From contig OZ037836.1 of assembly GCA_964035575.1 (NCBI GenBank), positions 2,046,001-2,110,000 on the forward strand: DNA of 64,000 bases. Direction: 5' to 3'. Under the pieces are notes generated by a model. It was not told where the DNA came from and searched no databases. It saw only the letters and a program-made list of their open reading frames with translations. Position 1 is the stretch's first letter, and the number at the start of each line of letters is the position of its first letter. Shown here in pieces: positions 4,683 to 62,015 of the stretch. This DNA is from Rhynchopus sp. YZ270_cl-10. Its lineage: Eukaryota. A program made the position numbers and the translations under genes.

Positions 4683-6126
4683 ATGGACAAACCCCGTACC
4701 ACACTGCACGTCAAGACGCTTGCGACGAACGAGGTGTTCCACCTGAAGAAGGTCAGCACAGCCACGACAGTCGCTACGCTCAAAGCACGGCTCAACCCGC
4801 TCCTCGGCGACAGCGGTGCAGTGACATCCGATGCTTTGGTGCTTCTGCGTGAGGGTGGCAGCGTCAACATCACCGATACCGACACCATAGCTGGTGCAGG
4901 GCTTGAGGGCGCCACCCTCCTGGTCATGACGTCCGAGCAGTACCACGGGTCGCCACACAAGGTGCCCCCCGCACTTCCCCCCTCTGCGCTGAAGAAGAGC
5001 GTGACGATACACGAAACGCCGACTCAGCGGAGCACGGTGCGGAGCACGGGAGCGGACGGTACCTTTGCGCTTCGCGTACAGTGCACGCTGGGGAGCAGCG
5101 GGGACGCGGTGTTGAAGGGCGTCTCCGCACGCAGCAGTGTCGGCTGGCTCCTCGACATCCTGGCACGCCACGTCGCGCACCCGCAGGCTGCCCTCCTCCT
5201 CCTCCACGACGGCCAGCCCCTTGCAGAAGGCGACTCCATCGGCTCTGCCGGCGTGACACCCGACTCAAAGCTCACCCTCATCGCGAAAGACCCGACACAC
5301 ATCCTCGACAACGAGAAGATCTCTGTATACCTCGAGACCGCGGCAGGCGACGTCACCTCCTTGAGGGTACCCCTCGGGTCTCGCGTGCAGGAGCTAAGCA
5401 ACGCTGCTGCCGCGAATTGGGATATGCCCCAAGGTGCTGTAGTCCTGAGTGTCGGTGGTGCCACCCTCGACCCGCGTGCCACGCTGTCTGCGGCAGGTGT
5501 GCAGGACGAACAGACGCTTCTCGTCACCTCCTCCCTCCCCGCAACCAGCCTCCGTCCCAAGACCTGCCATGTGTGCGGCCTCCCGCAGACAACCACATAC
5601 TGCACAGTCTCGGGAGAGCGCCACCTTGAGGCGGCAGAGGCACACCCTCTCCCAGGCGAAGTGACGGGGCCGCTCCTCACCAACTCGATACAGCCCATTG
5701 AGGAGGTGACCGCACCGTCCGCAACGGAGGCGATGCACATCACGATCTCTGTGTTCAACAAGGTGGACGGAAAGGAGTACCGCCTGCCCACACTGCGTCC
5801 GGGGGCTGTGACGGTACGCAAGGTGAAGCTTCTCCTGGCGAAGGCAGTGGGCGTGCCCGTCGCGGATATGGTGCTTAAGGGTGGCGGCGGTGCCGTGGCG
5901 TTGCTCGACACGCTCACATTGCGGCAGGCGGGCATCGTACACGGGGAGAGTCTGGTGCTCAGTGTACGTGGTCTTAACGACTTTGTAGCCTCGGGTGAGC
6001 TGCACGGCGGGCGTGAGCCCACTACACTAGGCATAGAACGAACGTATCCAACCATGTCGCCACCTAAGCAGTTCCCAACAGCGTTCCACCCTGACGAGCA
6101 CCCTTTGGTGCAGCCGCACTTTGACA
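4683..6126 (+). CDS. Exon 1 of a 3-exon multi-ubiquitin-like-domain protein (~4 UBL domains plus a CxxC...C...H Zn-ribbon-like motif); spliced product ~962 aa
   Basis: GC-rich ORF with repeated ubiquitin-fold patterns (LHVKTLATNEVFHLKKVSTATTVATLKARL; LLHDGQPLAEGDSIGSAGVTPDSKLTL; LSVGGATLDPRATLSAAGVQDEQTL; TVRKVKLLLAKAVGVPVADMVL) and CHVCGLPQTTTYCTVSGERH; GTATGT donor at 6127 (phase 1), followed by an AT-rich shift. Confidence 0.85.
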
Positions 6127-6447
6127 GTATGTTCTTCCCCCACACTCAGTCTATGAAAGCAACAGTGAATGATGATCATCTTTCCTTTGCTGCTTTCCTC
6201 GCCGTTCAAAAAACAGTTTCTCGTATTGTGCGAGAATGCCATCACAATCGTTTATCACCCAACCCTAACGAGCCATGATGTTGATCCAAAATTATTCAAT
6301 AATTAAACTCTTCCCCTAAAAGCCCCTTTCTTTGTTTTTCTTTATCCAATGAATGTACTTTATCCAAAACGAGGATGCGTAATGGTCCCTTCATACATTT
6401 ACGGCCAAAATGCTACAAAAAAAAAATCAATAAAAAAAACACAACAG

Positions 6448-7682: not shown

Positions 7683-8459
7683 GTATGTTTTATCTCTTTT
7701 TTTTTTGTATTTTGCGCGGGGTCGAAAGTCATGCCAGGGACCAGGTTCTGGGGGAGGAGATGTGTGCTGTCTGTGTAGTCCCTCGAAACAAGAGGGAAAC
7801 TGCAGCCTGTAGCGTTTTTCCAAAAAAAAAAAAAAAAAAAAAAACCCCTCCGCAAACTGTATTTCACTCGGTCCCGAGATACATGGGAATTATCTAACAC
7901 CCCGTCCTGAGTTTTTCTCCGCGAATATGGTTACTAATTAGTTACTCCACTAAATAAATCGAGCAAAACTATGGTGAACTCAGCGGAGCCCGGTTTTAAA
8001 AGTGCCGAAAAAATGACCTTTTCGTTTTTGACGCATTGTGAGTTCCTCAAATGCAATTTTCAAGGGTAAACAATTTGGGTAACAAAAAGAAAACCGACGC
8101 AGGAGCTTTTCTTGGAACTGTTTTATTCTCCTCACCCCAACAACATCACATTCAGAAAAACACTGTTTTCCCGTTTTTATTCGCTTTCTTTTCTTCTTCC
8201 TCACACTTTGTTACTGTGAAGAAAAATCTTTTCGTTTGCCTGGTCGCATACTGCGAGTTTTCCTGGATGCGCAGGAAAAATGACTGGGGAGTGTTGGTGG
8301 CTCCGTGACGCCACAGAGCCGGCACACTCGTTGAGTGCCTCACAAAACCTAAAATACTTATTTGCTTTTATCATTTGTCTTCACGCTTTATCGTTTTTGT
8401 TGGGGTGGGAAATAAAATTAAAATCTAAATAAACTTCACCTATCTCTTGTGATTTGCAG

Positions 8460-10401: not shown

Positions 10402-11962
10402 CAGGGAAATAGCTCCATATACCGAATTATGCGACATCGCATAATTCTGGATTTTTGGGAAAAAAAAAAAAAAATAGTGGAGTTCATCCTCGGGTGTCTA
10501 CACTAATACAACCAAGTTTTCAAAAAAAAAAAAAAAAAAAAAGATGGTGTGACCACCCAAACCGATTCTCCGAGGTTCTTCCGTGGTTCTTCCGTAGGTA
10601 CTCCGGTAAGGGGGGTATACGATTTTTTTTTGTTGTTTTCGGTTTTCGCCCCTCGGGGGGGCTTCGAGACCTGGCAACCGCATACGTACCCTCAGGTTGT
10701 GTAAAAGTGATCATGCTGACCAAAACATAAAAGTAACGACCAAAAAAAAAAACGAAAAATGAATTTCCTAAAGCAAACTGACGGTGTTGACTTGGCTGTG
10801 CAGACACAGGCCCCTGGACAAGTCAGGACAGTGGCACGTGGGCACTACACCGCAACCCGGAGGAAAGGGAATGATACACCACCACCTGCACGCGGGTGCT
10901 ACAAACATTTTGACTGGGAAAGCCTCCAAGGCGGTCATGGCATATATAGTTGCGTATTACACACAGTACACAGTACACAGTACACAGTACACAGTACACA
11001 GTACACAGTACACAGTACACAGTACACAGTACACAGTACACAGTACACAGTACACAGTACACAGTACACAGTACACAGTACACAGTACACAGTACACAGT
11101 ACACAGTACACAGTACACAGTACACAGTACACAGTACACAGTACACAGTACACAGTACACAGTACACAGTACACAGTACACAGTACACAGTACACAGTAC
11201 ACAGTACACAGTACACAGTACACAGTACACAGTACACAGTACACAGTACACACGATATACGGGCGGTTCATTTTTTCTCAAGGGATTTTTTCCTCGCCGT
11301 TATTTTTTCGCGCGAAAATGCCATTTTTGGCACGTTTCAACCAATACAAACCCGTGGTGACCTCTCTCAGTCAAATTTGTGGTCATTTTCCCCTTGTGAC
11401 AGAAACCGAGAACAACAAAAAAAAAGTATACCCCTAGCAGTTCTCCGAGGTTCCTCCGTGGTTCTTCCGTGGGTTCTCCGTACCCCCTGAATCACACCAA
11501 AAGAGGGGATTTTTGGGCACTTTTGGGGGCCCCTCGCCCGACCCCCAGATCTCCCAAATGACTGGAATGATGAAATCGTAAAAGTTTCGCTCGCTGCGCT
11601 TGCAGATGTGCCGTACCCCTTAATTTTTTTTTGCCTGCGGCGCCATTTTCCTTTTTTGCTCCGCAAAAAAGGGTTTGTTGAGTGACTGTGTGGTTGTAAA
11701 CCAGCATTTTTACACCGTACCCTATTTTTTTTTCGCCTGCGGCGCCATTTATTTTTTTCCATACGGTTAGTGGAACGTAAGGTGCAAGACCAAGCTCCGT
11801 AATAAGGTATTACATTCCGTTTTTGGTTATCGCAAATTGACCTTTCGCCTCTCCACTCAGGGAGGCTTGCGCGAAGCGCAACGACCGCTTTCGACCGGGC
11901 GGAAAAAAAAATTCGTTTTCGCATAATTCCTGATTTTGGAGGAAAACCAAGCTATTTCCCTG
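10402..11962. mobile_element. TIR element C nested in family A, 9-bp TSD (Mutator-like by TSD length)
   Basis: 13-bp TIR CAGGGAAATAGCT / AGCTATTTCCCTG; TSD AAAAAAGCC at 10393-10401 and 11963-11971; empty site visible in the 37099 copy. Confidence 0.85.
10961..11252. repeat. (ACACAGT)n microsatellite, ~41 units
   Basis: Perfect 7-bp tandem repeat. Confidence 0.98.
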
Positions 11963-14157: not shown

Positions 14158-15186
14158 CGATGAGGTGTGCTGCATAACGGGCTTCCTCAAGTCGCTCTTC
14201 CAACCAAAGCAGACATGGTGGCAGTTTAGTGAGGACACATCAGTTGGCAAATGTTTGTTTAATGTTTATGAGTGTAGCATCGGTTTGTAATGTGGTCCAC
14301 ATTTTTGTGGGAATTGTCAAGATCTTGATCACAAAGATGAAGATTTGGGCTGTGTGGAATGTTTGTCTTCTTTGCCTTGTCGGGTGTGTGCACTGTATGT
14401 GAAACAACTGTGGCTCTGCAGGTACATGCTCTGATGTCTATTCAGTGTGGTGTGTTGTGGTTTTGTTATGTTCTGTTATGTTTAGTTCATTTTAAAGCAT
14501 ATTCGGGGATGGTACATGGGGACAGGAAGGGTAACAAACAAGGTGGTCGCCCTTCTTTATTAGCACGCCATATGTTAGGGTTTTGTGCATTGCTTCTTTC
14601 ATTTGTTTTGCAGTCAGGCCAGCTTACTGCATGGGAGGGCTGCCACATCCAGGGGTGAGATGTGCTGCCTGTAAATGACTTCTCGAGTCCGCGAAGTGCA
14701 TTCATTTTGCAACTCCAACAGATGCAGAAGGAATGTGGGGGAGGACCTGGCACAGCACATGAACATCTGTACAGATGCTGTCACAAATATTCGGACAAAA
14801 ACAAAACAAAAGACCTCTCCCCTTGCAACTGTTTGTTGTCTCTTGCGTACTCTTACCCCCAATTGAAAACACCTGCACAAAACAGAGAGACACAAAACCA
14901 TGGAAATATGTGTGAAGAGCTTTGACGGAGAGAAGTACACAGTCGAGGTGGGTGTGGATGATACAACTGCGGACATACGGCGGAAGGTGGCGTCTGCAGC
15001 AGAGTTGTGCGAAGACGGCTTTGACATGAGCTTCGGAGAGAAGCTGCTGGCCGAAGGAGACGACACGACGCAGCTGAGTGCTGGGGACACAGTTGTGCTG
15101 ACGAAGACGAAGTCGCAGAAGGACGACGCCATTGCAGCTCTTCGTGACTTGGGTGAGACAAGGCTGACGTCAGAGAGGTTCGAAGG

Positions 15187-15253
15187 TGGGGTTTTACCGA
15201 GCACCTCCACGAGGTGACCCCGGGCAACGCAGTGGACTGCGGCAAAGACTCGG
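15187..15253 (+). ncRNA. Putative HDV-like self-cleaving ribozyme
   Basis: Manual fold: P1 15187-15193/15216-15222; P2 15197-15202/15247-15253 (bulged A); P3 ACC/GGU; L3 UCCACGA; P1.1 CC/GG; P4 CGCAG-UGGA-CUGCG; J4/2 GCAAA with candidate catalytic C15243. Confidence 0.8.
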
Positions 15254-17931
15254 AACAAGAAGAAAAAGAAGAACAACATCTGAAGTGCCTCATGGAATAC
15301 GAGGACCGCTAACTTCGCGACATGGTAGCTTTTTACGTGCTAGCCGAAGCCTGAACCCAAGACCTCCCTAGTAGGGGGGGCGCGTGATCACTCAGCAGTC
15401 AAACAACAACATTTGAAAGACCTCATGGAATACGAGGACCGCTAACTTCGACGACATGGTAGCTTTTACGTGCAAGCCGAAGCATGAACCTAAGACCTCC
15501 CTAGTAGGGGGGGCGCGTGATCACTCAGCAGACAAACTACATCATCAGAAATGCCTCATGGAATACGAGGACCGCTAACTTCGGCGACATGGTAGCTTTT
15601 ACGTGCAAGCCGAAGCCTGAACCTAAGACCTCCCTAGTAGGGGGGGCGCGTGATCACTCAGCAGTCAAACAACAACATCTGAAAGACCTCATGGAATACG
15701 AGGACCGCTAACTTCGACGACATGGTAGCTTTTACGTGCTAGCCGAAGCATGAACCTAAGACCTCCCTAGTAGGGGGGGCGCGTGATCACTCAGCAGACA
15801 AACTACAACATCTGAAAGACCTCATGGAATACGAGGACCGCTAACTTCGACGACATGGTAGCTTTTACGTGCAAGCCGAAGCATGAACCTAAGACCTCCC
15901 TAGTAGGGGGGGCGCGTGATCACTCAGCAGACAAACAACAACATCTGAAAGACCTCATGGAATACGAGGACCGCTAACTTCGACGACATGGTAGCTTTTA
16001 CGTGCTAGCCGAAGCATGAACCTAAGACCTCCCTAGTAGGGGGGGGCGCGTGATCACTCAGCAGACAAACAACAACATCTGAAAGACCTCATGGAATACG
16101 AGGACCGCTAACTTCGGCGACATGGTAGTTCTTTACGTGCAAGCCGAAGCATGAACCTAAGACCTCCCTAGTAGGGGGGGCGCGTGATCACTCAGCAGAC
16201 AAACAACAACATCTGAAAGACCTCATGGAATACGAGGACCGCTAACTTCGACGACATGGTAGCTTTTACGTGCTAGCCGAAGCATGAACCTAAGACCTCC
16301 CTAGTAGGGGGGGGCGCGTGATCACTCAGCAGACAAACAACAACATCTGAAAGACCTCATGGAATACGAGGACCGCTAACTTCGGCGACATGGTAGTTCT
16401 TTACGTGCAAGCCGAAGCATGAACCTAAGACCTCCCTAGTAGGGGGGGCGCGTGATCACTCAGCAGACAAACAACAACATCTGAAAGACCTCATGGAATA
16501 CGAGGACCGCTAACTTCGACGACATGGTAGCTTTTACGTGCTAGCCGAAGCATGAACCTAAGACCTCCCTAGTAGGGGGGGGCGCGTGATCACTCAGCAG
16601 ACAAACAACAACATCTGAAAGACCTCATGGAATACGAGGACCGCTAACTTCGACGACATGGTAGCTTTTACGTGCAAGCCGAAGCATGAACCTAAGACCT
16701 CCCTAGTAGGGGGGGCGCGTGATCACTCAGCAGACAAACTACATCAGAAATGCCTCATGGAATACGAGGACCGCTAACTTCGACGACATGGTAGCTTTTA
16801 CGTGCTAGCCGAAGCATGAACCTAAGACCTCCCTAGTAGGGGGGGGCGCGTGATCACTCAGCAGTCAAACAACAACATCTGAAAGACCTCATGGAATACG
16901 AGGACCGCTAACTTCGACGACATGGTAGCTTTTTTCGTGCAAGCCGAAGCATGAACCTAAGACCTCCCTAGTAGGGGGGGCGCGTGATCACTCAGCAGTC
17001 AAACAACAACATCTGAAAGACCTCATGGAATACGAGGACCGCTAACTTCGGCGACATGGTAGCTTTTTTCGTGCAAGCCGAAGCATGAACCTAAGACCTC
17101 CCTAGTAGGGGGGGCGCGTGATCACTCAGCAGTCAAACAACAACATCTGAAAGACCTCATGGAATACGAGGACCGCTAACTTCGGCGACATGGTAGCTTT
17201 TTTCGTGCAAGCCGAAGCATGAACCTAAGACCTCCCTAGTAGGGGGGGCGCGTGATCACTCAGCAGACAAACAACATCATCAGAAATGCCTCATGGAATA
17301 CGAGGACCGCTAACTTCGACTACATGGTAGTTCTTTACGTGCAAGCCGAAGCCTGAACCTAAGACCTCCCTAGTAGGGGGGGCGCGTGATCACTCAGCAG
17401 TCAAACAACAACATCTGAAAGACCTCATGGAATACGAGGACCGCTAACTTCGGCGACATGGTAGCTTTTACGTGCTAGCCGAAGCATGAACCTAAGACCT
17501 CCCTAGTAGGGGGGGCGCGTGATCACTCAGCAGACAAACTACAACATCAGAAACGATGCCCATGGAATATGAGGCAATTCTTAGTATTTTACCTTTTTCG
17601 TGTATTTCAATCTTGGTCAACGACATTCTTGTTTTTAAAACATTGTTTTTCAGTTACTATAGCGACGCGTAAGCCCAAATGGCTCTGTTGCTGTTCATTG
17701 CTTTTCCTTTTCAAGTTGATACAAGATTTTTTATTTTATTTTAAGTTGGTTCAGCCTCGCGTCAGCCCATTGGCGCTGTCGCTGAACCCAAACATTTTCC
17801 TTTTCTTTGTTCGGTTTTTGGCCCGTGAGACCCAGTGTTACTGCAATACTGGGTTCGCGAGCCTGAAGCCAGGGGTGGCTGCATTCCTTTTCGGACCGGG
17901 GTGCTCCATCCTATTTTTAAAAAACGTTTAC
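15188..17931 (+). mobile_element. Non-autonomous retroposon-like insertion with 5' HDV-like ribozyme and internal tandem array
   Basis: 20-bp TSD CGTCAGAGAGGTTCGAAGGT at 15168-15187 and 17932-17951; no TIR; no credible ORF. Confidence 0.85.
15272..17570. repeat. Tandem array, ~17 copies of a ~133-bp unit
   Basis: CTCATGGAATACGAGGACC recurs at 15289, 15422, 15555, 15688, 15821 ... 17424. Confidence 0.97.
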
Positions 17932-19178
17932 CGTCAGAGAGGTTCGAAGGTCTTGCAGATCCCAAGCTGGTTCATTTGTTTCTGCAGGCGGAGGTTGTTA
18001 CTGAGATCCCCGATGAATTATTGCGAGGGGTCGTGTTCTCAGAACTTGATCTCAGTGGTGTGTCAGGTGTTACCTGTGTAGGTTACAACTTCCTCCAATA
18101 CTGCCCTTCATTGCACACAGCTGACTTATCTGGGTGGAACAATGTGACGCGGGTTGGGCACTCTTTTCTCTCCATCTGCAGCACATTGCGAAGCCTTGAC
18201 TTGTCTGGGTGGAACACTGTGACGCACGTAGGAGACTTCTTTCTCTGCAACTGCACCTCATTGACCACACTGGATATTTCAGGGTGGAACAATGTGACGC
18301 ATGTTGGGACCTGTTTCCTCACCAAATGCACTTCATTGCAAACCCTTGACCTATCTGGGTTAACGACTGTTCAGCACATTGGGACAGGCTTCCTGTATGG
18401 ATGCAAAATACGTACAAGCAGCATCAACGTCACCGGATCGAGCAGTGTTGTGTCAGAATATGTGCAGAGTCGTAACCTCGTGGATAAAATCAAGCACCAA
18501 TGTGTGTGCATGTGAGGCATGTGCATCTTTCGAGAGGCTAGGTACTCATTGCGATGTTCAGAGAACGAATTTTACATTGCACGTTGCACTTTGCCCTTAC
18601 CAAAACTAACGTCGCTTTTGACCGTTCTTTTGCTTTCCCAAGCTTCAAAGGTTAAAAAGAACGAGCGAAGAATAAATCATAGCTGGTGATGTTTTATACC
18701 CGATTCTTTGCCTCCTCGCGTGCGTACAGTGCTGCAACCAAGCATGTTGTCGCAGCCAGTATTTTTGTGCACTATTTGGGTTGGACCCCTGTAGTCATGA
18801 TAAAAGCGATGACGCCATTGAGCGACTCATAGGCGCATGAGTGATAGACGTTGTCGCTGTGGTATCCCGCCTCGCAGAGGAAGGTGTTTTTGACACAGCA
18901 ACTTCGTGAGTTAGTATCGGTCTGTGAATCAAATTGAAAACGGCGTGTTTGCGCGTCATATCGCAGAGGATAGAGAAACTGAAAAGTATTGAAAATAACA
19001 GAAGTATGGTGCCAAGTTCACAAGGAACAGATAGTGGAGCACATCCTCTGTCCACATTACTATAACGAAGCTTTCAAAAACAAAACAAAAGACCTCTCCC
19101 CTTGTAACTGTTTGTTGTCTCTTGCGTACTCTCACCCCCAATTGAAAACACCTGCACAAAACAGAGAGACACAAAACC

Positions 19179-30873: not shown

Positions 30874-31097
30874 AAGGTAGGGAAGGCGTTCAGGGAGTCG
30901 TCCCTCCCTTTGGCAGCACCCTCGAGTACAAGGTAGGGAAGGCGTTCAGGGAGTCGTCCCTCCCTTTGGCAACACCCTCGAGTACAAGGTAGGGAAGGCG
31001 TTCAGGGAGTCGTCCCTCCCTTTGGCAGCACCCTCGAGTACAAGGTAGGGAAGGCGTTCAGGGAGTCGTCCCTCCCTTTGGCAACACCCTCGAGTAC
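30874..31097. repeat. Minisatellite, 4 x 56 bp
   Basis: AAGGTAGGGAAGGCGTTCAGGGAGTCGTCCCTCCCTTTGGCA(G/A)CACCCTCGAGTAC in tandem. Confidence 0.95.
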
Positions 31098-32498: not shown

Positions 32499-32590
32499 GG
32501 GGACAAAAACGTGAGGTGGCAGCCCCCCGGCATTTTTGCCCTGGCGTCCCCGGATATAATCTCTTTTTTGAGTGAACGAAGGCCACGCGT
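32499..32590 (+). ncRNA. Possible HDV-like ribozyme variant
   Basis: P1 GGGGAC/GUCCCC followed by GG; P2 GUGGC/GCCAC; P3 GCC/GGC; P4 CUC-U6-GAG; J4/2 C-GAA (C32577); L3 atypically extended by the hairpin GGCAUUUUUGCC. Confidence 0.5.
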
Positions 32591-33111
32591 GGGATGGTTG
32601 CATTGCACTTTTGCAAACCCGGGCACATGATACTGGAGGGTCCAAAGCAACTGGAGGAGGTGTATGCTGGGCTTTTTGTGCCCTCAGGGATTTAAGCGAC
32701 CCTGCGCCTACTTTACGACCATGCACAGCTTTTGCTTTTCTTTTCTTTGCTTTTCTTTGCTTTTTGTAGGTGCTAACCTGCGGCAGTGGTTTGCATCAGT
32801 TGGGTGTTCCACTCACCGCAGTTTAGAGAATTAGGAGATGCCAGTCATTCGTTCCTCCCATTGGAATGACTGGTGGTTTTATTGTTGTTTATTTCTTTTG
32901 ACGCTGCCAGAGTGCGGACCTTGAACTGGCTTATATACAACCTAGGCCACCAGCGGTGGTATACGGCCCCTGTTCACTTAGGTGTCGCTTCTTTGTTGGG
33001 TATAAGTCAGCAAATGGGATCAAGCCACTCTCTGGCACACCGTGGTGCCATCCTTCCCTTTTGCTGGTTTTTCTTTTTGCGGGGGTGGATCACGTTTTTC
33101 AAGGTTAATAT
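32499..33111 (+). mobile_element. Short retroposon-like insertion with possible 5' HDV-like ribozyme
   Basis: 18-bp TSD CTCATTGCCCACGCTGGA (32481-32498, 33112-33129); no TIR or credible ORF; starts GGGGAC. Confidence 0.8.
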
Positions 33112-42522: not shown

Positions 42523-45500
42523 ATGCTGCGTCTCGCTGTGGCGTTGCTGCTTGCGACGTTTGCAGCAGGATCCGATGCGAAGGTGTTCTACTGGTTCAAG
42601 GCGACGAAGTCCTGGCAGAAGAGCCGTGGCAAGGAAAGCGGGAGGGAGGAGTACACCATGAAAGGATGGGTGAAGGTGGATAACGGAGTGAAAAAGGATC
42701 TTGGCTGTATCAAGTGCGACTCGTACTCCTCGTGCACAAAGACAGGAACATGGGCTTCATCCGGTACACAGAGCTTGTCCGGTGCTCTGAGGATGAGAAC
42801 CTACCTCGATGCGTGGGAGGATGACAACGGTTCGAGGTGCTCCTTCAAAAAAGGATGGTGGATCAACGACGATGACGACCGCTGTCGTGAGGAGTGCAGC
42901 ATCAACATGAAGTCTTACGCAATGGGCAGAACACACACATACAGGTGCAAGGACAACAAAGGTAAGGCCTATCTTGAGGTGCAGTTCCGTTGGTGGCCAG
43001 ACACCACTGCTGCACCGGACACACCCGCACCACCGACAAGGGCCCCACGTACACGGGCCCCACCTACACGGGCCCCACGGACACGGTCCCCACCGACACC
43101 GTCACCACCGACTCCGAGTCCTCCGACACCAGCACCACCCACTCCAAGTCCTGCAACACCATCACCACCGACTCCAAGTCCTCCGACACCTTCGCCACCG
43201 ACTCCGAGTCCTCCAACACCATCTCCACCGACTCCAAGTCCTCCAACCCCGTCGCCACCGACACCAGCACCACCGACTCCCAGTCCACCTACTCCGAGTC
43301 CTCCAACCCCGTCGCCACCGACACCATCACCACCGACTCCAAGTCCTCCGACACCATCACCACCCACTCCGAGTCCTCCGACACCTTCGCCACCGACACC
43401 GTCACCACCGACTCCGAGTCCTCCAACACCATCACCACCGACTCCGAGTCCTCCAACACCATCACCACCGACTCCAAGTCCTCCGACACCTTCGCCACCG
43501 ACACCGTCACCACCGACTCCGTCGCCACCCACTCCAAGTCCTCCAACACCATCTCCACTGACTCCAAGTCCACCGACTCCGTCGCCACCGACACCGTCAC
43601 CACCGACTCCGAGTCCTCCAACACCATCACCACCGACTCCAAGTCCTCCGACACCTTCGCCACCGACACCGTCACCACCGACTCCGTCGCCACCCACTCC
43701 AAGTCCTCCAACACCATCTCCACCGACTCCAAGTCCACCGACTCCGTCGCCACCGACACCGTCACCACCGACTCCGAGTCCTCCAACACCATCTCCACCG
43801 ACTCCAAGTCCACCGACTCCGTCGCCACCCACTCCGAGTCCTCCAACCCCGTCGCCACCGACACCAGCACCACCGACTCCGAGTCCTCCAACACCATCTC
43901 CACCGACTCCAAGTCCACCGACTCCGTCGCCACCCACTCCGAGTCCTCCAACCCCGTCGCCACCGACACCGTCACCACCGACTCCGAGTCCTCCAACACC
44001 ATCTCCACCGACTCCAAGTCCACCGACTCCGTCGCCACCGACACCGTCACCACCGACTCCGAGTCCTCCAACACCATCTCCACCGACTCCAAGTCCACCG
44101 ACTCCGTCGCCACCCACTCCGAGTCCTCCAACCCCGTCGCCACCGACACCATCTCCACCGACTCCCAGTCCACCGACTCCGAGTCCTCCAACCCCGTCGC
44201 CACCGACACCGTCACCACCGACTCCGTCGCCACCGACTCCGAGTCCTCCAACACCATCTCCACCGACTCCAAGTCCACCGACTCCGTCGCCACCCACTCC
44301 GAGTCCTCCAACCCCGTCGCCACCGACACCAGCACCACCGACTCCGAGTCCTCCAACACCATCTCCACCGACTCCAAGTCCTCCAACCCCGTCGCCACCG
44401 ACACCATCACCACCGACTCCGTCACCACCCACTCCAAGTCCTCCAACACCGTCACCACCCACTCCGAGTCCTCCAACCCCGTCGCCACCGACACCAGCAC
44501 CACCGACTCCCAGTCCACCGACTCCGAGTCCTCCGACACCTTCGCCACCGACACCGTCACCACCGACTCCGAGTCCTCCAACACCATCTCCACCGACTCC
44601 AAGTCCTCCAACCCCGTCGCCACCGACACCAGCACCACCGACTCCCAGTCCACCGACTCCGAGTCCTCCGACACCTTCGCCACCGACACCGTCACCACCG
44701 ACTCCGAGTCCTCCAACACCATCTCCACCGACTCCAAGTCCTCCAACCCCGTCGCCACCGACACCAGCACCACCGACTCCCAGTCCACCGACTCCGAGTC
44801 CTCCGACACCTTCGCCACCGACAACGTCACCACCGACTCCGAGTCCTCCAACACCATCTCCACCGACTCCAAGTCCTCCAACCCCGTCGCCACCGACACC
44901 GTCACCACCGACACCGTCACCACCGACTCCGAGTCCTCCAACACCATCTCCACCGACTCCAAGTCCACCGACTCCGTCGCCACCCACTCCGAGTCCTCCA
45001 ACCCCGTCGCCACCGACCCCAGCACCACCGACTCCAAGTCCTCCAACACCGTCGCCACCTACTCCAAGTCCTCCGACACCATCACCACCGACTCCAAGTC
45101 CTCCGACACCATCACCACCGACTCCAAGTCCTCCAACACCATCACCACCGACTCCGAGTCCTCCAACACCATCTCCACCGACTCCAAGTCCTCCAACCCC
45201 GTCGCCACCGACACCATCACCACCGACTCCGTCACCACCCACTCCAAGTCCTCCAACACCGTCACCACCCACTCCGAGTCCTCCAACCCCGTCGCCACCG
45301 ACACCAGCACCACCGACTCCCAGTCCACCGACTCCGAGTCCTCCAACCCCGTCGCCACCGACACCATCTCCACCGACTCCAAGTCCTCCGACACCTTCGC
45401 CACCGACACCGTCACCACCGACTCCGAGTCCTCCAACACCATCTCCACCGACTCCAAGTCCTCCAACCCCGTCGCCACCGACACCAGCACCACCGACTCC

Positions 45501-48500
45501 CAGTCCACCGACTCCGAGTCCTCCAACCCCGTCGCCACCGACCCCAGCACCACCGACTCCAAGTCCTCCAACACCGTCGCCACCTACTCCAAGTCCTCCG
45601 ACACCATCACCACCGACTCCAAGTCCTCCAACACCATCACCACCGACTCCAAGTCCTCCGACACCATCACCACCGACTCCGAGTCCTCCAACCCCGTCGC
45701 CACCGACACCAGCACCACCGACTCCAAGTCCTCCGACAACATCACCACCGACTCCAAGTCCTCCGACACCGTCACCACCGACTCCAAGTCCTCCGACACC
45801 ATCACCACCGACTCCAAGTCCTCCAACACCATCACCACCGACTACAAGTCCTCCGACACCATCACCACCGACTCCATGTCCTCCGACACCGTCACCACCG
45901 ACTCCAAGTCCTCCGACAACATCACCACCGACTCCAAGTCCTCCGACACCGTCACCACCGACTCCAAGTCCTCCGACACCGTCACCACCGACTCCAAGTC
46001 CTCCGACACCATCACCACCGACTCCAAGTCCTCCAACACCATCACCACCGACTACAAGTCCTCCGACACCATCACCACCGACTCCAAGTCCTCCGACACC
46101 ATCACCACCGACTCCAAGTCCTCCGACACCATCACCACCGAATCCAAGTCCTCCGACACCAGCACCACCGACTCCAAGTCCTCCGACACCATCACCACCG
46201 ACTCCAAGTCCTCCGACACCATCACCACCGACTCCGAGTCCTCCAACCCCGTCGCCACCGACACCAGCACCACCGACTCCCAGTCCACCGACTCCGAGTC
46301 CTCGAACCCCGTCGCCACCGACACCATCTCCACCGACTCCAAGTCCTCCGACACCTTCGCCACCGACACCGTCACCACCGACTCCGAGTCCTCCAACACC
46401 ATCTCCACCGACTCCAAGTCCTCCAACCCCGTCGCCACCGACACCAGCACCACCGACTCCGAGTCCTCCAACACCGTCGCCACCGACACCATCACCACCG
46501 ACTCCGAGTCCTCCAACACCGTCGCCACCTACTCCAAGTCCTCCGACACCATCACCACCGACTCCAAGTCCACCGACTCCCAGTCCACCGACTCCGAGTC
46601 CTCCAACACCGTCGCCACCTACTCCAAGTCCTCCGACACCATCACCACCGACTCCAAGTCCACCAACTCCTTCACCGCCGACACCGTCACCACCGACTCC
46701 GAGTCCACCTACTCCCAGTCCACCGACACTATCACCACCGACTCCGGGTACGCCCACTACTTCCCCTGTGTCACCATCACCGCTGACACCAAGTCCACCT
46801 ACCTCCAGTCCAGCGACACCTTCAATGCTTACACGGTCACCATTGACGTTGCCACCTGTAACACCGTCACCCCCAACATCGGTTCCTGTCACGCCTTCAC
46901 CACCCTCAATTACTCCTGTAGTGCTTTTTCCTGACACACGGGTGCCGGTGACGCTGTCACCCAGCACATTGGAACCTGTCATGCCATCGCCAGCAACATT
47001 TGCCCCTGGAACACTTTCACCTCCCACACTAGCACCTGTAACAGCATCGACACCAACATTTTCACCTGTCACATGGTCACCTCCTACACCTTCACCTGTG
47101 ATAGTGTCTCCACCAACATTCGCACCTGTAACGTTTTCTCCTCCGACACATGCTCTTGTAACCGTATCCCCTCTCACAACTTCACCACTGACTACGGCAC
47201 CGTCAGAGACTCCTTTGCCGAGCACAGAGGCTCCGGGAACATCGATACCGTTGCTTTCGACGTCGCCGCTGACGTCTCCCCCTTCTGCACCTGCCACAGG
47301 ATCCCCAGACACATTTGCTCCTGGAACAGCGGTACCCATCACATCAGACCCGGCAACAGGTGTGCCCGACACACTGACATCTGTGGTAGCCTCATCCACT
47401 GCACCAGAGACACAAGCGCCATCAACACAGGTGCCCACGTTTCAAGGCACAATGACCCCAGTCGCAGTAATCACATTCCAGCCACCAACCGAAGCCAGTT
47501 CTGCGTCGCCGATAACTGCAAGCCCGATAACAGGCACCCCCGACACGCTGGCGCCTGCAACTGGAGACACACAAGCTCCGTCTGTGACACGAGTACCGAG
47601 GTTGCCACGCACGATGGTGCCGAATCCAGTCCTGGTGACGTTCCAGCCGCCCACAGACGCCGCTTCTGTGCAGGAGACGACAACACCTGGCACGCTTACG
47701 TTCAGCCCAACGACGGTCTCGCCAGACACGACTGCACCTGGCACGCTTACGTTCAGCCCAACGACGGTCTCGCCAGACACGACTGCACCGATTGCAGCAG
47801 GTGACAGGACGTTTTCGCCTATTGTGCCGGCGACATTTGGACCAGATCGCGGCACAGCAACACAAGGGCTGCTTGTGGAGTGTCCTGTGGGGGCAACGGC
47901 TTCTGACATGCGCAGTCATGCTGTGACGGTGAACGTGTGGCACGGGTCTGGCACTGCTGTGGACACAGAGGTGGCTGTGGCAAGCACTGCAGGGGAGAAG
48001 GAGTACCTGGGCATATGGGCGTCAAAGCAAGACGGCTTTGTGCAGTCGAGTGCACACCCGACACACGCAGGGGGGCAGCAGCTGCGTATGGGGAATGCAC
48101 ACTACTCCGGCAGTGGGAGCGAGACGCTGGAGCTGCAGGTGACGGACAAGAACACCCTGGAGACGGCGTCCTGCACAGTGTCCGTGTCTGCGGTGGCGGC
48201 AGCTGCTGTGCAGCAGTCTGCTGTGGCAGAGACGACACCTGCGATTGGTGTGGTGAGTGTCAGCTCAGCAGCGTCGGGGTCCACACTAGGCCTGGTGGGC
48301 ACGCCGCAGTGCGGTGTGAAGGCAGACCTGCCCTTTGGTGTGCACCCACTTCAGTTCGAGCTTGACGGAAGCCAGCACCTGGGAGCTGTGGCAGGGAACA
48401 CAGTCAGCATGGTGGTGCTTGCAGGGCTTGCGTACAGTGTGTCGTGGGTGGTGGGGACACAGACAAAGTCAGTCTTCCTGCAGCAGCTGCTGGCGTATCA

Positions 48501-49836
48501 GGGGTTCACAGCGTTCCCGTCTGTGCTCCTGTACTTCTTTGTGTTCCTGTACCAAGGAACGGTGTACGCGTCACAGCACCTTGTCGTCTACCCTAAGACG
48601 CTTGCGCACTTCCTCGGGGGACTTGCAGGCGTGATTGCGTGCGTTGCCGTGCCGGTGTGGGTCGGGTGGAAGATACGGCGCTCTGTGGCGTGGCGAGCGA
48701 CCTACACTCCAGAGTCTGCGGAGGGGCCTGGTGTGGTGCGACTGTTCTTCCTCGGCAAGGGCGAGTGGGTGCCGACGGAGCGCGACGACCGCTTCAACAG
48801 TCGCTTCATGTCGATGCTGAAGCCGTACGGGGAGGAGACGTGCTGGTTTGTGGTGTTTTTCTTCCTGCTGATGTTCGCGGTCGGTGCACTGACAGTGCCG
48901 GACACAACAGACTTCATTGAGTGCGGGCACCTGCGCATGGGGATGGCAGTGCTGTTTGCTGTGATGGCGCTGTTTGTGGGGTGGCTGCGGCCGTACTGCC
49001 GTGTGCGCGACAACGCGCTGTACGTGGTGCTGTACTCTGTGGCTGCAGTGGCAATGGTGATGCAGGGCCTGGGCTACTACAATGAAGACCTGGACGACCC
49101 GAAGTTCACACTCGCAATGAACATTCTGACAGTTGCGTTGGCGTTGGTGATTGTGAAGGCAGTAGCGGACCTGCTCTGCGATGTGTACGTTGTGTGGACA
49201 GCACGTCGCCGCCTTCTGCAGGAGGCACTGTGGGCGAAGCAGGACGCATCACGTGTGTCTGCACGTGAGATAGACCAGCAGGGCTACCTGTCTGTGTTTG
49301 GCGAGTTGTCTGTTGCAGACACGCAGACGAAGCAGCTGCCGCCACTTCCGTCTCCGCCACCACGTGGTGGAGGCATGTTCACAGAGTTTGGTCTTCCATC
49401 CGAGACGAGCCCTCAGTACTTTGACGACGTGGGGGACGTGGAGTCGAACCCAAGCAGCCCTGTGCAGGATGTGCCACAGTCGTATGCCCACTCGCCACTG
49501 GGCGTGTCGAGTGGGCCGTTCCCCACGAAGTCCCTGCCAAGTGAGGATGTGGTGCACGTCACACCTGTGCGGCGTTCGGCAGGTGTCTCGCTCTTCAACG
49601 AACCTCCTGCGCAGCCGATGGGGTTGCTGGCGTTTGAGGCTGGCGGTCTGGGGTTCTCGCTGTCGGGACCTAGCTCGGTGCTCGCACCCACGTCGCCTGC
49701 ACAGGAGCCACCTCCTTCGGACGCGAGCCTGAGTGGAGTGTCGTTGAGTGACAACAACGTTGGGACGTCCACCTCTTCGAAGCCCTCGTGGGGCAAAGGA
49801 GCGCCACTGACGGAGGACTACGTCTCGCATGTGTGA
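42523..49836 (+). CDS. Large surface glycoprotein: signal peptide, Cys-rich head, ~240 PPTPS extensin-like repeats, S/T/P stalk, multi-pass TM domain, cytosolic tail (~2437 aa)
   Basis: ATG at 42523 after a CAG acceptor, followed by hydrophobic [19 protein letters not shown]; 7 or more hydrophobic segments at ~48380-49200. Confidence 0.9.
43081..46746 (+). repeat. Coding 15-bp tandem repeat (TPSPP)n
   Basis: Unit ACNCCN(TCN/AGT)CCNCCN with extensive synonymous variation. Confidence 0.98.
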
Positions 49837-52069: not shown

Positions 52070-53320
52070 ATGTACTTCGACAGCAATGCCGATAGCGACA
52101 GCGACAGCGACGGGGTCTATGAGTGCAGGTACTGTGGTGCGTCCGAGTCGCTGACCGGGAGGCCGTTTTATCACGAAAATCAAATTGCGCAGCACGAACG
52201 GGACTGCAGCAGCGTGTTTCCTTGCAGGCATTGTGGTGCAACTGAGTCTAAGAGCGGTCTGTATTTTCTCAGAGAAGAACATCGTGACTCACACGAAGCG
52301 AACTGCCCTGAAAACAAGAGTCGGTTTAAAGCAAGCTTGGAGAGCGTACCCCAAAGGAACCGTAAGCGCGACGAAGAGACGTGCAACGTGTACCCTTGCA
52401 GGAGGTGTGGTGCCACGGAGTCGAAGCAAGGAAAGGTGTTCCTGACAGAGAAGCATCGTAACTCTCATGAGCACAACTGCGACGGCGAAGACCATCACGA
52501 CCCTCAAGACAGTCATCAGCACTCCACAAACGCTCGCGACCGTGATCATCAACCGATGGACCCTCGCGAACGTGATCAACATCAACACAACTGCGACAAC
52601 GAAGAGCATTATCACCATCAGCGCCAACATCACCAACATCACCATTTTCATCATTATCACCAACATCACTATCAGCAACTTCAACCAGTGGTGATACCAG
52701 TGGTTGAAGTGTATGGGTTTGTGTGTCAACCACATCACCACTGCGGCTGCAACTGCGAGGCATACCAACGGATGGACCCTCGTGACCGGCATCAACAATT
52801 CATGGACCCTCGCGATCGTTATCAATCTCACCATCATCACCATCCGCAACAACAACCGCAACAGCAGCAGCAGCAGCAGAAGCCCTCCACGAGGGAACCA
52901 CACTCTCAGCCCCCACATCAACCCGCTGTACCACCCCCGCCCCACACCCAGGAGCCCACATCGCCACCAGAAGAGTTTGTGTGTCCCATCTGCGCTGACC
53001 TGATGCAGGAGCCCATGCAGTGCAGGGAGGGCCACTCTCTGTGCAAGACCTGTTGGGATGCCTGCCTGTCGCAGAGGGTCCCCGGGAGTCGTCATGTGTG
53101 CCCTATTGACAACAGAACACATGTGAACAGATCCCACCTGGTCCCTAACAGAAGCCTGGCGTCGCTCATTGAGTCATACGTCAAGAAGCAGGGGAGGGGG
53201 GCAGAGCGCTCCTCTGCTGATGCCACGCAGCAGGCAGCACCTGATCGCTCTGGACTCGGAGGCCGTGGTGGAGGCAAGGGCAGGGGCGGAAGACGTGGGA
53301 GCCGCTCCATTGCCGAATAG
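52070..53320 (+). CDS. Zinc-finger / RING-finger protein, putative E3 ubiquitin ligase, 416 aa
   Basis: Three C2HC-type repeats (CRxCGA[ST]ES..G..F..E.....HE..C); His/Gln/Pro linker; RING CPIC...CREGHSLCKTC...CPID (C3HC3D type); RGG-rich tail. Confidence 0.9.
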   Translation: MYFDSNADSDSDSDGVYECRYCGASESLTGRPFYHENQIAQHERDCSSVFPCRHCGATESKSGLYFLREEHRDSHEANCPENKSRFKASLESVPQRNRKRDEETCNVYPCRRCGATESKQGKVFLTEKHRNSHEHNCDGEDHHDPQDSHQHSTNARDRDHQPMDPRERDQHQHNCDNEEHYHHQRQHHQHHHFHHYHQHHYQQLQPVVIPVVEVYGFVCQPHHHCGCNCEAYQRMDPRDRHQQFMDPRDRYQSHHHHHPQQQPQQQQQQQKPSTREPHSQPPHQPAVPPPPHTQEPTSPPEEFVCPICADLMQEPMQCREGHSLCKTCWDACLSQRVPGSRHVCPIDNRTHVNRSHLVPNRSLASLIESYVKKQGRGAERSSADATQQAAPDRSGLGGRGGGKGRGGRRGSRSIAE

Positions 53321-60946: not shown

Positions 60947-61572
60947 CCTAGGCATACCGTGCAGACGAGTCGTCTACTCGTCTATCCTCGTCTTTTTGGG
61001 TCACGACCCAAAAACTCGTCTTTTTACTCGTCTATCCTCGTCTTGACGAGTGCTGTACTCGTCTCATACTCGTTTGTTAGGCCCTGTGAGGTGCTCACGG
61101 GTGAGGTGCTCACGGGTGAGCGTTGTCCGGCCAGCCAGTAGACCTCTTCGTCGGTGTCTTTCTGTGTCTTGCAGTTGACAGTACCAAAGTCCATTATTAA
61201 TGTACTTTTGAGTAACCCGTACAACTGTCTCGTGTGTTCCAGTGTGTCGATGTTGTCTGGTGATCGATATTGCTCTCCATCCGCACGTATAAACGTGCTG
61301 CAACACAAACGTTCCACCGACGTTACCTACAACTAAGGGGAGGGGGAGGGGGAGGGGACTCGTTACCTGCACGGTGGCTTGGTCAGGTGACTGACCAGGC
61401 TCTGACCAAGCTAAAAACATGACCAAGGGGGCTTGGTCATGACCAAACCCCCCCTTGGTCATGACCAAGGGGGGGCTTGGTCAGACCAGGCCCCCCCTTG
61501 GTCATGACGGGTAAAAATGCACGGTGGGGGGTTTGAAACCCGCAAAAAAAAACAAAATAAGAGCACAAAGCA

Positions 61573-62015
61573 TGTATACTGTGTATACTGTGTATACTGT
61601 GTATACTGTGTATACTGTGTATACTGTGTATACTGTGTATACTGTGTATACTGTGTATACTGTGTATACTGTGTATACTGTGTATACTGTGTATACTGTG
61701 TATACTGTGTATACTGTGTATACTGTGTATACTGTGTATACTGTGTATACTGTGTATACTGTGTATACTGTGTATACTGTGTATACTGTGTATACTGTGT
61801 ATACTGTGTATACTGTGTATACTGTGTATACTGTGTATACTGTGTATACTGTGTATACTGTGTATACTGTGTATACTGTGTATACTGTGTATACTGTGTA
61901 TACTGTGTATACTGTGTATACTGTGTATACTGTGTATACTGTGTATACTGTGTATACTGTGTATACTGTGTATACTGTGTATACTGTGTATACTGTGTAT
62001 ACTGTGTATACTGTA
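61573..62015. repeat. (TGTATACTG)n 9-bp microsatellite, ~49 units
   Basis: Perfect tandem repeat. Confidence 0.98.

Follow-up and report, generated by a model that had tools for sequence, protein, structure and literature searches.

A presumed non-autonomous retroposon with a predicted HDV-like ribozyme and a large tandem array within a ubiquitin-like/BspA-LRR gene

Which kind of element interrupts a ubiquitin-like/BspA-LRR gene in the 64-kb window (the whole stretch of DNA analysed, to which all coordinates refer), and by which route could an insert consisting mostly of tandem repeats have entered a coding sequence? The 2,744-bp insert is very probably a non-autonomous non-LTR retroposon. 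The account as a whole, i.e., such a retroposon equipped with a ribozyme, dependent on a borrowed LINE enzyme and carrying its array as a passenger, is favoured with reasonable, though not high, confidence.

Insertion into a coding sequence

The insert (15188-17931) is bracketed by an exact direct repeat of 20 bp that cannot be extended, representing the left (15168-15187, + strand) and right (17932-17951, +) copies of a target site duplication (TSD), as claimed in the original prediction. The interrupted gene starts at 14900. Its 5′ half (14900-15187, +; 96 codons; Pfam ubiquitin, E 1.2e-5) shares 96–99 % identity with seven paralogues, and its 3′ half (17952-18515, +; LRR_5, E 1.2e-16) continues in register and without internal stop to its own stop codon. 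The start motif of the gene is present in eight copies in the window, and the other seven paralogues (7/7) all display the empty site, the 20-mer region being found there once and directly continuous with the downstream sequence (in one case shifted by 2 nt). These empty sites together with the 20-bp TSD identify 15188-17931 as an insertion, and the intactness of both gene halves suggests that it is a recent one. The gene disruption and the nearby empty paralogues were not part of the earlier reading, which had been made from the letters only.

When the window was scanned for inserts that are bounded by a TSD and have an empty counterpart among the paralogues, 164 candidate repeat pairs were reduced to 17 rows, 15 of which lie within the array and were dropped, the other two being true inserts: 15188-17931 and a second one of 613 bp (32499-33111, +), which is flanked by an 18-bp TSD (32481-32498/33112-33129). 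The latter resides in another, already frameshifted ubiquitin-LRR paralogue, has no ORF, array or poly(A), and is unrelated in sequence to the 2,744-bp insert except for low-complexity matches. At its base +1, a descriptor search places an HDV-like topology with an enlarged L3 containing a hairpin; no Rfam ribozyme was matched in this insert. Its pyrimidine-AG site (21/24 pyrimidines) belongs to the top-scoring class of the window (8 of 3641 AG sites). Both inserts are in the sense orientation of the cluster, all 16 of the genes that we selected as plausible being encoded on the + strand.

The cluster itself (12895-57182) is a tandem arrangement of at least 12 intronless ubiquitin-like and BspA-LRR genes from two subfamilies, and 231 homologues of the ubiquitin-LRR proteins in the protein collection point to a very large expansion. 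Also assigned to the cluster are two further proteins (4683-6278 and 52070-53320), one with multiple ubiquitin domains and one of U-box/RING type. A predicted surface protein of 2,437 aa (42523-49836) has a signal-like N-terminus, about 120 PPTPS-rich repeats and five homologues in the protein collection; the resemblance of its C-terminal membrane domain to DGF-1_C of Euglenozoa (Atlas 0.88, below 0.9) is to be taken as a lead only. An apparent GT donor at 7683 is, like the location of all selected genes on one strand and the DGF-1_C resemblance, a lead towards a euglenozoan, diplonemid-like host. Further features of the window are a 56-bp unit repeated four times, near-perfectly, in the region separating two ubiquitin-LRR genes (30874-31097; a TSD-bounded empty site was not found there) and perfect simple arrays of a 7-mer (41.7 copies, 10961-11252) and a 9-mer (49.1 copies, 61573-62014). 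Directly upstream of the 9-mer array is a GC-rich inverted/tandem repeat (61418-61508) with several sub-threshold miRNA matches. Rfam miRNA matches across repeats and hairpins were discounted, since they score far under the cut-off.

Predicted ribozyme at the first inserted base

The 5′ head of the insert (15188-15253, +) is predicted to form an HDV-like ribozyme fold, on the basis of a match to Rfam family RF02682 and of the descriptor. The RF02682 match (15188-15255) begins at the first inserted base and is aligned across the whole model, with 37.7 bits against a gathering score of 44 (E 1e-4 for 2.9 kb, 0.0022 for the whole window); it is the one credible Rfam match within the insert. The predicted fold comprises P1 of 6 bp (or 7 bp with the last target base included), a bulged P2, P3, L3, P1.1 (GG), P4 and a candidate catalytic C at 15243, so that a nested double-pseudoknot with P1.1 and predicted catalytic C can be placed in the head, albeit below the gathering score. 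P1 of HDV-like ribozymes usually has 7 bp. Thus, the head shares the P1/P3/L3/P1.1/P4 and catalytic-C pattern of the family over the full model, but scores under the curated value and has a P1 one pair shorter.

With the descriptor anchored, matches were limited to 2 of 127,720 window positions, namely base +1 of each of the two inserts; shuffling each head 20,000 times gave none (0/20,000). Since this descriptor was written after both heads had been seen, its specificity is inflated, and the independent fact is therefore the coincidence of the folds with the insertion junctions rather than the number of matches. A looser version was unspecific, with 20 other starts matched within the window. 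Accordingly, the head is addressed here as a predicted ribozyme with hypothetical self-cutting activity. It is followed by an A-rich spacer (15254-15287, +; 56 % A over 15256-15287) that leads to the first repeat.

Tandem array

The array (15272-17574, +) makes up 83 % of the insert length. Tandem Repeats Finder (TRF) reports 17.2 copies at a period of 134 with 95 % matches, corresponding to 17 full units of 130-136 bp (starts 15288 to 17423) plus the degenerate start of an 18th; the homogeneous array of 17 133-bp units originally described is thereby borne out. It is non-coding and without Rfam match. On average, units differ at 6.1 positions, with 4 identical pairs out of 136 (units 6=8=10 and 7=9), and those two apart are most alike (4.3 differences). 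The latter, together with the identical units, indicates local duplication of dimers.

The unit does not fold better than its shuffles (z -0.75, -0.33, -0.14 and +0.75 in four frames), and its sequence variants take up differing predicted folds. The array contains no Rfam ribozyme at E values up to 10; the hammerhead core CUGANGA is absent from both strands, and the HDV descriptor does not match there either. A ribozyme or structured RNA as the unit is ruled out by Rfam, descriptor, shuffle folding and the unlike folds of the variants; a by-eye comparison with the twister consensus likewise failed. The proposal that the array may provide promoter or reverse transcriptase-binding monomers finds no backing in the shuffle-like and variant-dependent folding of the unit, nor in the second insert, which is array-free. 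Most likely, the array is a dispensable passenger of this subfamily, grown by local duplication.

The 3′ part and its terminus

Downstream of the array follows a T-rich unique segment with polypyrimidine tracts (17575-17812, +; 43 % T). The best pyrimidine-AG site of this segment (17714; 20/24 pyrimidines) is equalled or exceeded at 18 of the 3641 AG sites in the window, which is suggestive of a possible splice acceptor. Folding and variant mapping delineate a first 3′ hairpin of 58 nt (17813-17870, +). The previously noted hairpin at 17828-17857 does exist; it starts at 17827, though, and constitutes the tip of this larger structure. Behind it comes a second hairpin (17872-17912, +), the portion of the insert that other sequences have in common with it, as seen from loose contig ends before 17870/17873 and rising summed depth (see below); it is likely the site recognised by a reverse transcriptase. 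The fixed 3′ terminus (17913-17931, +) consists of T5, A6 and CGTTTA, with 17930 as its last base and a single additional base behind it, and was delimited by contig divergence after 17923, 17924 or 17930. For the region 17790-17931 a fold with z -4.65 is predicted, equally good folds being reached in 0/200 shuffles. The lack of a real poly(A) tail, noted already in the original prediction, holds for 17559-17931 (38 % T), where A6 is internal to the fixed end.

Other copies in public sequencing runs

Parts of the stretch are contained in 16 of the 19 listed runs, four of which, from three studies, were compared (X1, X5, X6 and X7), the remaining 12 mostly containing small shares of it; X6 and X7 represent one sample, and one of the compared runs may be the window's own source. 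Among the best 12 of 61 loose ends, contigs depart after 17930 (7 in X1, 5 in X5) or after 17924 (4 in X1, 3 in X5), with a consensus agreement of only 0.51–0.58 and median loose lengths of 84–255 letters. In X6 and X7, contigs depart after 17923; here, too, the terminal motif is found with different flanks behind it. Since the departing contigs agree poorly with each other, the 3′ end is a fixed one (17930) that occurs at several unrelated sites; the divergence of other copies beyond this position also means that the element proper ends there, leaving 17931 as one extra base. Single-copy ends, which the original prediction had named as speaking against it, are thus not what is observed: 3′ flanks vary and termini are shared in the public contigs.

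Upstream of the second hairpin, other sequence joins before 17870/17873 in 3 contigs of X1 and 8 of X5 (among the best 12 of 61 loose ends) as well as in 1 contig of X7. These loose ends could be 5′-truncated copies instead of a partner family. After 15270, i.e., past the head, 2 contigs of X5 pass into other sequence (again among the best 12 of 61 loose ends). The sequence joining at the insert ends can be followed for no more than 30 letters, and these as a mixed consensus. Summed depth rises towards the 3′ end, the last three bins amounting to 9.6k, 26k and 106k in X1 and to 4.0k, 9.9k and 32k in X5. As a rough hint, depth not being copy number, contigs identical to the array-tail junction have 8–9 times the depth of a flank contig (2506 vs 324; 896 vs 105), and those of the first unit and the head about 13 times (4377; 1345). 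One X5 contig joins ribozyme, spacer and first unit (15229-15315). None of the contigs listed crosses either junction of the locus or the whole array.

Variation in the public contigs includes six substitutions across the hairpin region, three of which are unpaired, two pair-keeping and one (at low depth) pair-breaking. In X1 and X5, one contig each omits 74 tail bases (17738-17813), while another contains a diverged version of 17828-17928 with 7 substitutions and 14 gap positions; both kinds of contig indicate the existence of related 3′-end subfamilies.

Coding capacity and class assignment

The insert has no coding capacity, LTR or TIR (2 of the first 10 bases match), and no protein family was found in it. 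The original statement that there is no ORF is to be modified in that a single 121-codon ATG frame is present in the T-rich tail; it stands insofar as no Pfam family was matched. The head of a Pol III-transcribed SINE is lacking as well, with no tRNA and no tRNA-, 5S- or 7SL-type Rfam match in the insert. Nowhere in the 64-kb window does an Rfam family reach its gathering score, and exact patterns of tail and unit had no match (0) in JGI metagenome contigs, viral contigs and GTDB genomes. Points that count against a retroposon include the following. Among 110 window frames, chosen from 141 stop-free stretches and gene pieces, no reverse transcriptase, endonuclease or transposase family was detected. 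Moreover, most retroposons possess a poly(A) or microsatellite tail, which is lacking here. Nevertheless, empty paralogous sites, the predicted fold at +1, varied 3′ flanks, shared termini and the absence of TIR support the original assignment to a non-autonomous retroposon of an unnamed family.

Comparison with known systems

The R2 SIDE and R2/R1 hybrid SIDE of Drosophila resemble the insert in having no ORF, a 5′ HDV-like ribozyme and a structured 3′ end for a borrowed reverse transcriptase, and further in their unrelated middle parts and reliance on read-through transcription (PMC3414825). They are, however, only about 0.5 kb in size, confined to 28S rDNA sites and, in case of R2 SIDE, poly(A)-ended (PMC3414825), whereas the present insert measures 2.7 kb, is an array to the extent given above, occurs at dispersed sites and combines a 20-bp TSD with lack of poly(A). 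Together with NARTc/RIME (PMC5814959; PMC5786205), R2 SIDEs (PMC3414825) provide precedents for parasites composed of a ribozyme and a 3′ end.

The non-autonomous trypanosomatid elements NARTc, RIME and SIDER, with ingi/L1Tc as partners, are similar in that an HDV-like ribozyme at +1 frees the element from polycistronic RNA (PMC5814959, PMC3820030), in their dispersed distribution and in the probable euglenozoan-type host. In the ingi clade, the TSD is fixed at 12 bp and the end is poly(dA), with no array described (PMC3820030). Membership of the ingi clade was rejected for the insert, based on the absence of 3′ poly(dA) and on a TSD that has 20 bp here and 18 bp around the 613-bp insert, instead of 12. 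A signature sequence of 76–79 bp is a further criterion of this clade.

An internal tandem repeat region, as known from CRE elements, is present (17 units), the likeness to CRE repeats being one by description only. The tandem repeats of SLACS/CZAR measure about 185 bp. SLACS, CZAR, CRE1 and CRE2 (PMC12278014) as well as the fungal FoTeR/MoTeR (PMC12857005) share with the insert internal or 5′ tandem repeats and TSDs of variable size, but are autonomous, site-specific (SL RNA genes or telomeres) and generally poly(A)-tailed. For trypanosomatid CRE elements, the spliced-leader gene as target and a generally poly(A)-ended terminus are stated (PMC12278014), and criteria of target and tail for SLACS/CZAR are also available from PMC5994713. 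Membership of SLACS/CZAR was rejected in view of the ubiquitin-LRR coding target, the differing flanks of other copies and the lack of both poly(A) and an ORF for reverse transcriptase and restriction-like endonuclease. The link to these elements drawn in the original prediction is accordingly reduced to a resemblance, since the target is not a spliced-leader gene and poly(A) is missing.

Among protist elements, EhSINE1 of Entamoeba histolytica comes closest in having both internal repeats and 18–24-bp TSDs: it is a non-autonomous retroposon without small-RNA head, the long TSDs being those of young copies, but differs by 1–4 repeats of 26–27 nt only, an element size of 0.5–0.6 kb and no mention of a ribozyme there (PMC2996970).

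Proposed mechanism and alternative explanations

We infer an RNA intermediate, self-cleavage and 3′ recognition. Most likely, read-through host transcription of the gene cluster would run across the element, and its 5′ end would be set by the predicted HDV-like ribozyme, whose cut in the RNA would fall precisely at base +1. A reverse transcriptase/endonuclease supplied by a LINE partner may then bind the 3′ hairpins, and the LINE protein would reverse-transcribe the element RNA at a staggered cut spanning about 20 bp. A scheme of this kind is described for R2 SIDEs (PMC3414825) and for L1Tc/NARTc (PMC5814959). Both ingi and SL-specific SLACS/CZAR elements are improbable as the partner; the best guess is a non-site-specific LINE making 18–20-bp cuts (REL-type or RTE-type).

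One may alternatively regard the array as a working part, i.e., promoter or enhancer monomers inherited from a CRE/SLACS-type LINE that had them in its 5′ UTR, and the insert as that LINE with its ORF deleted. The order of ribozyme, array, polypyrimidine/AG and 3′ hairpins would fit the fusion of 5′ and 3′ UTRs, and the first unit and the array-tail junction are found again in other copies; further, internal or 5′ repeat regions are reported for CRE-clade elements (PMC12278014), VNTRs for FoTeR (PMC12857005) and annotated SLACS-like reverse transcriptase genes for a diplonemid (PMC10161547). Set against this are the absence of CRE from the clades for which 5′ ribozymes or bipartite derivatives are listed (PMC5786205, section 23), the targeting of a protein gene rather than the SL gene, the lack of poly(A), and the fact that some heads pass into non-array sequence and that the 613-bp insert has no array, so that this origin is considered rather unlikely. 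Replication of the 133-bp unit as a rolling-circle monomer, in the manner of a retrozyme or Penelope-type multimer, could explain near-identical head-to-tail units with a partial last one. It is nonetheless highly improbable given the array's lack of an Rfam ribozyme (E up to 10), hammerhead core, HDV descriptor match or better-than-shuffle fold, and its position between a unique head and a unique tail that are both common to other copies.

Non-autonomous DNA transposons and Helitron-like elements typically have tandem arrays in their centre and hairpins on the 3′ side, features that together with the missing poly(A) would suit an element of this type carrying a satellite. No TIR is present, though, and Helitrons are not known to make a TSD, while TSDs of cut-and-paste elements are far below 20 bp; in addition, the finding of a ribozyme fold at +1 in two inserts of independent origin speaks for an RNA stage, leaving such an origin hardly credible. 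The gene might also tolerate the insert as a newly arisen spliceosomal intron, the AG|GT present in both TSD copies allowing traceless removal from GT at 15186 (or 15178) to AG at 17949 (or 17941). The two GT/AG pairs in the TSD would permit exact removal, the 3′ gene half is still open, and long TE-containing GT-AG introns are described for Diplonema papillatum (PMC10161547, section 7). Yet AGGT is unremarkable, being contained in 684 (11.8 %) of the 5793 20-mers that the intact paralogues comprise, it is missing from the 613-bp insert, neither AG (17949/17941) is preceded by a pyrimidine tract, an active ribozyme would cut two bases past the donor, and the open frame is accounted for by recent insertion; an intron is therefore very unlikely. 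As regards a chimeric join or an inflated array produced by assembly, the junctions of the locus and the array are unspanned by any contig listed. The exact TSD inside a coding frame, the structured variants among units and the recurrence, across independent studies, of contigs joining head to array and array to tail make an artefact the least probable explanation of all.

Implications

Ribozyme-headed non-autonomous derivatives of LINEs are reported from few clades (RTE, Ingi, Vingi, R2; PMC5786205) and are short, and transposons of Diplonema are stated not to have been curated (PMC10161547). In titles and abstract openings of the literature, no ribozyme-headed, satellite-carrying retroposon was found for such a host, a weak result in that most subscription papers and Repbase are outside this coverage. 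With the non-autonomous retroposon proposed here, the type would reach into a lineage of protists that has received little study, a view based on the element's content of tandem repeat, its long TSD, its lack of poly(A) and the presence nearby of another element that is built alike but unrelated. It would also add two natural HDV-like variants, one with a P1 of 6 bp and one with an enlarged L3.

As a doubtful but conceivable extension, several unrelated, ribozyme-headed and poly(A)-less parasites might exploit a non-site-specific lineage of LINEs that is as yet undescribed and may be a CRE/SLACS relative off its SL target. If true, a 5′ HDV-like ribozyme and bipartite derivatives would for the first time be found in a CRE-type system, one such derivative carrying a 2.3-kb satellite via an RNA stage and seeding satellite arrays into genes. 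A new mechanism would be implied only if the partner proved to be a new LINE lineage. For the biology of the organism, the insert offers a likely route for the spread of satellites through RNA and points to recent knock-outs in a large ubiquitin-LRR family.
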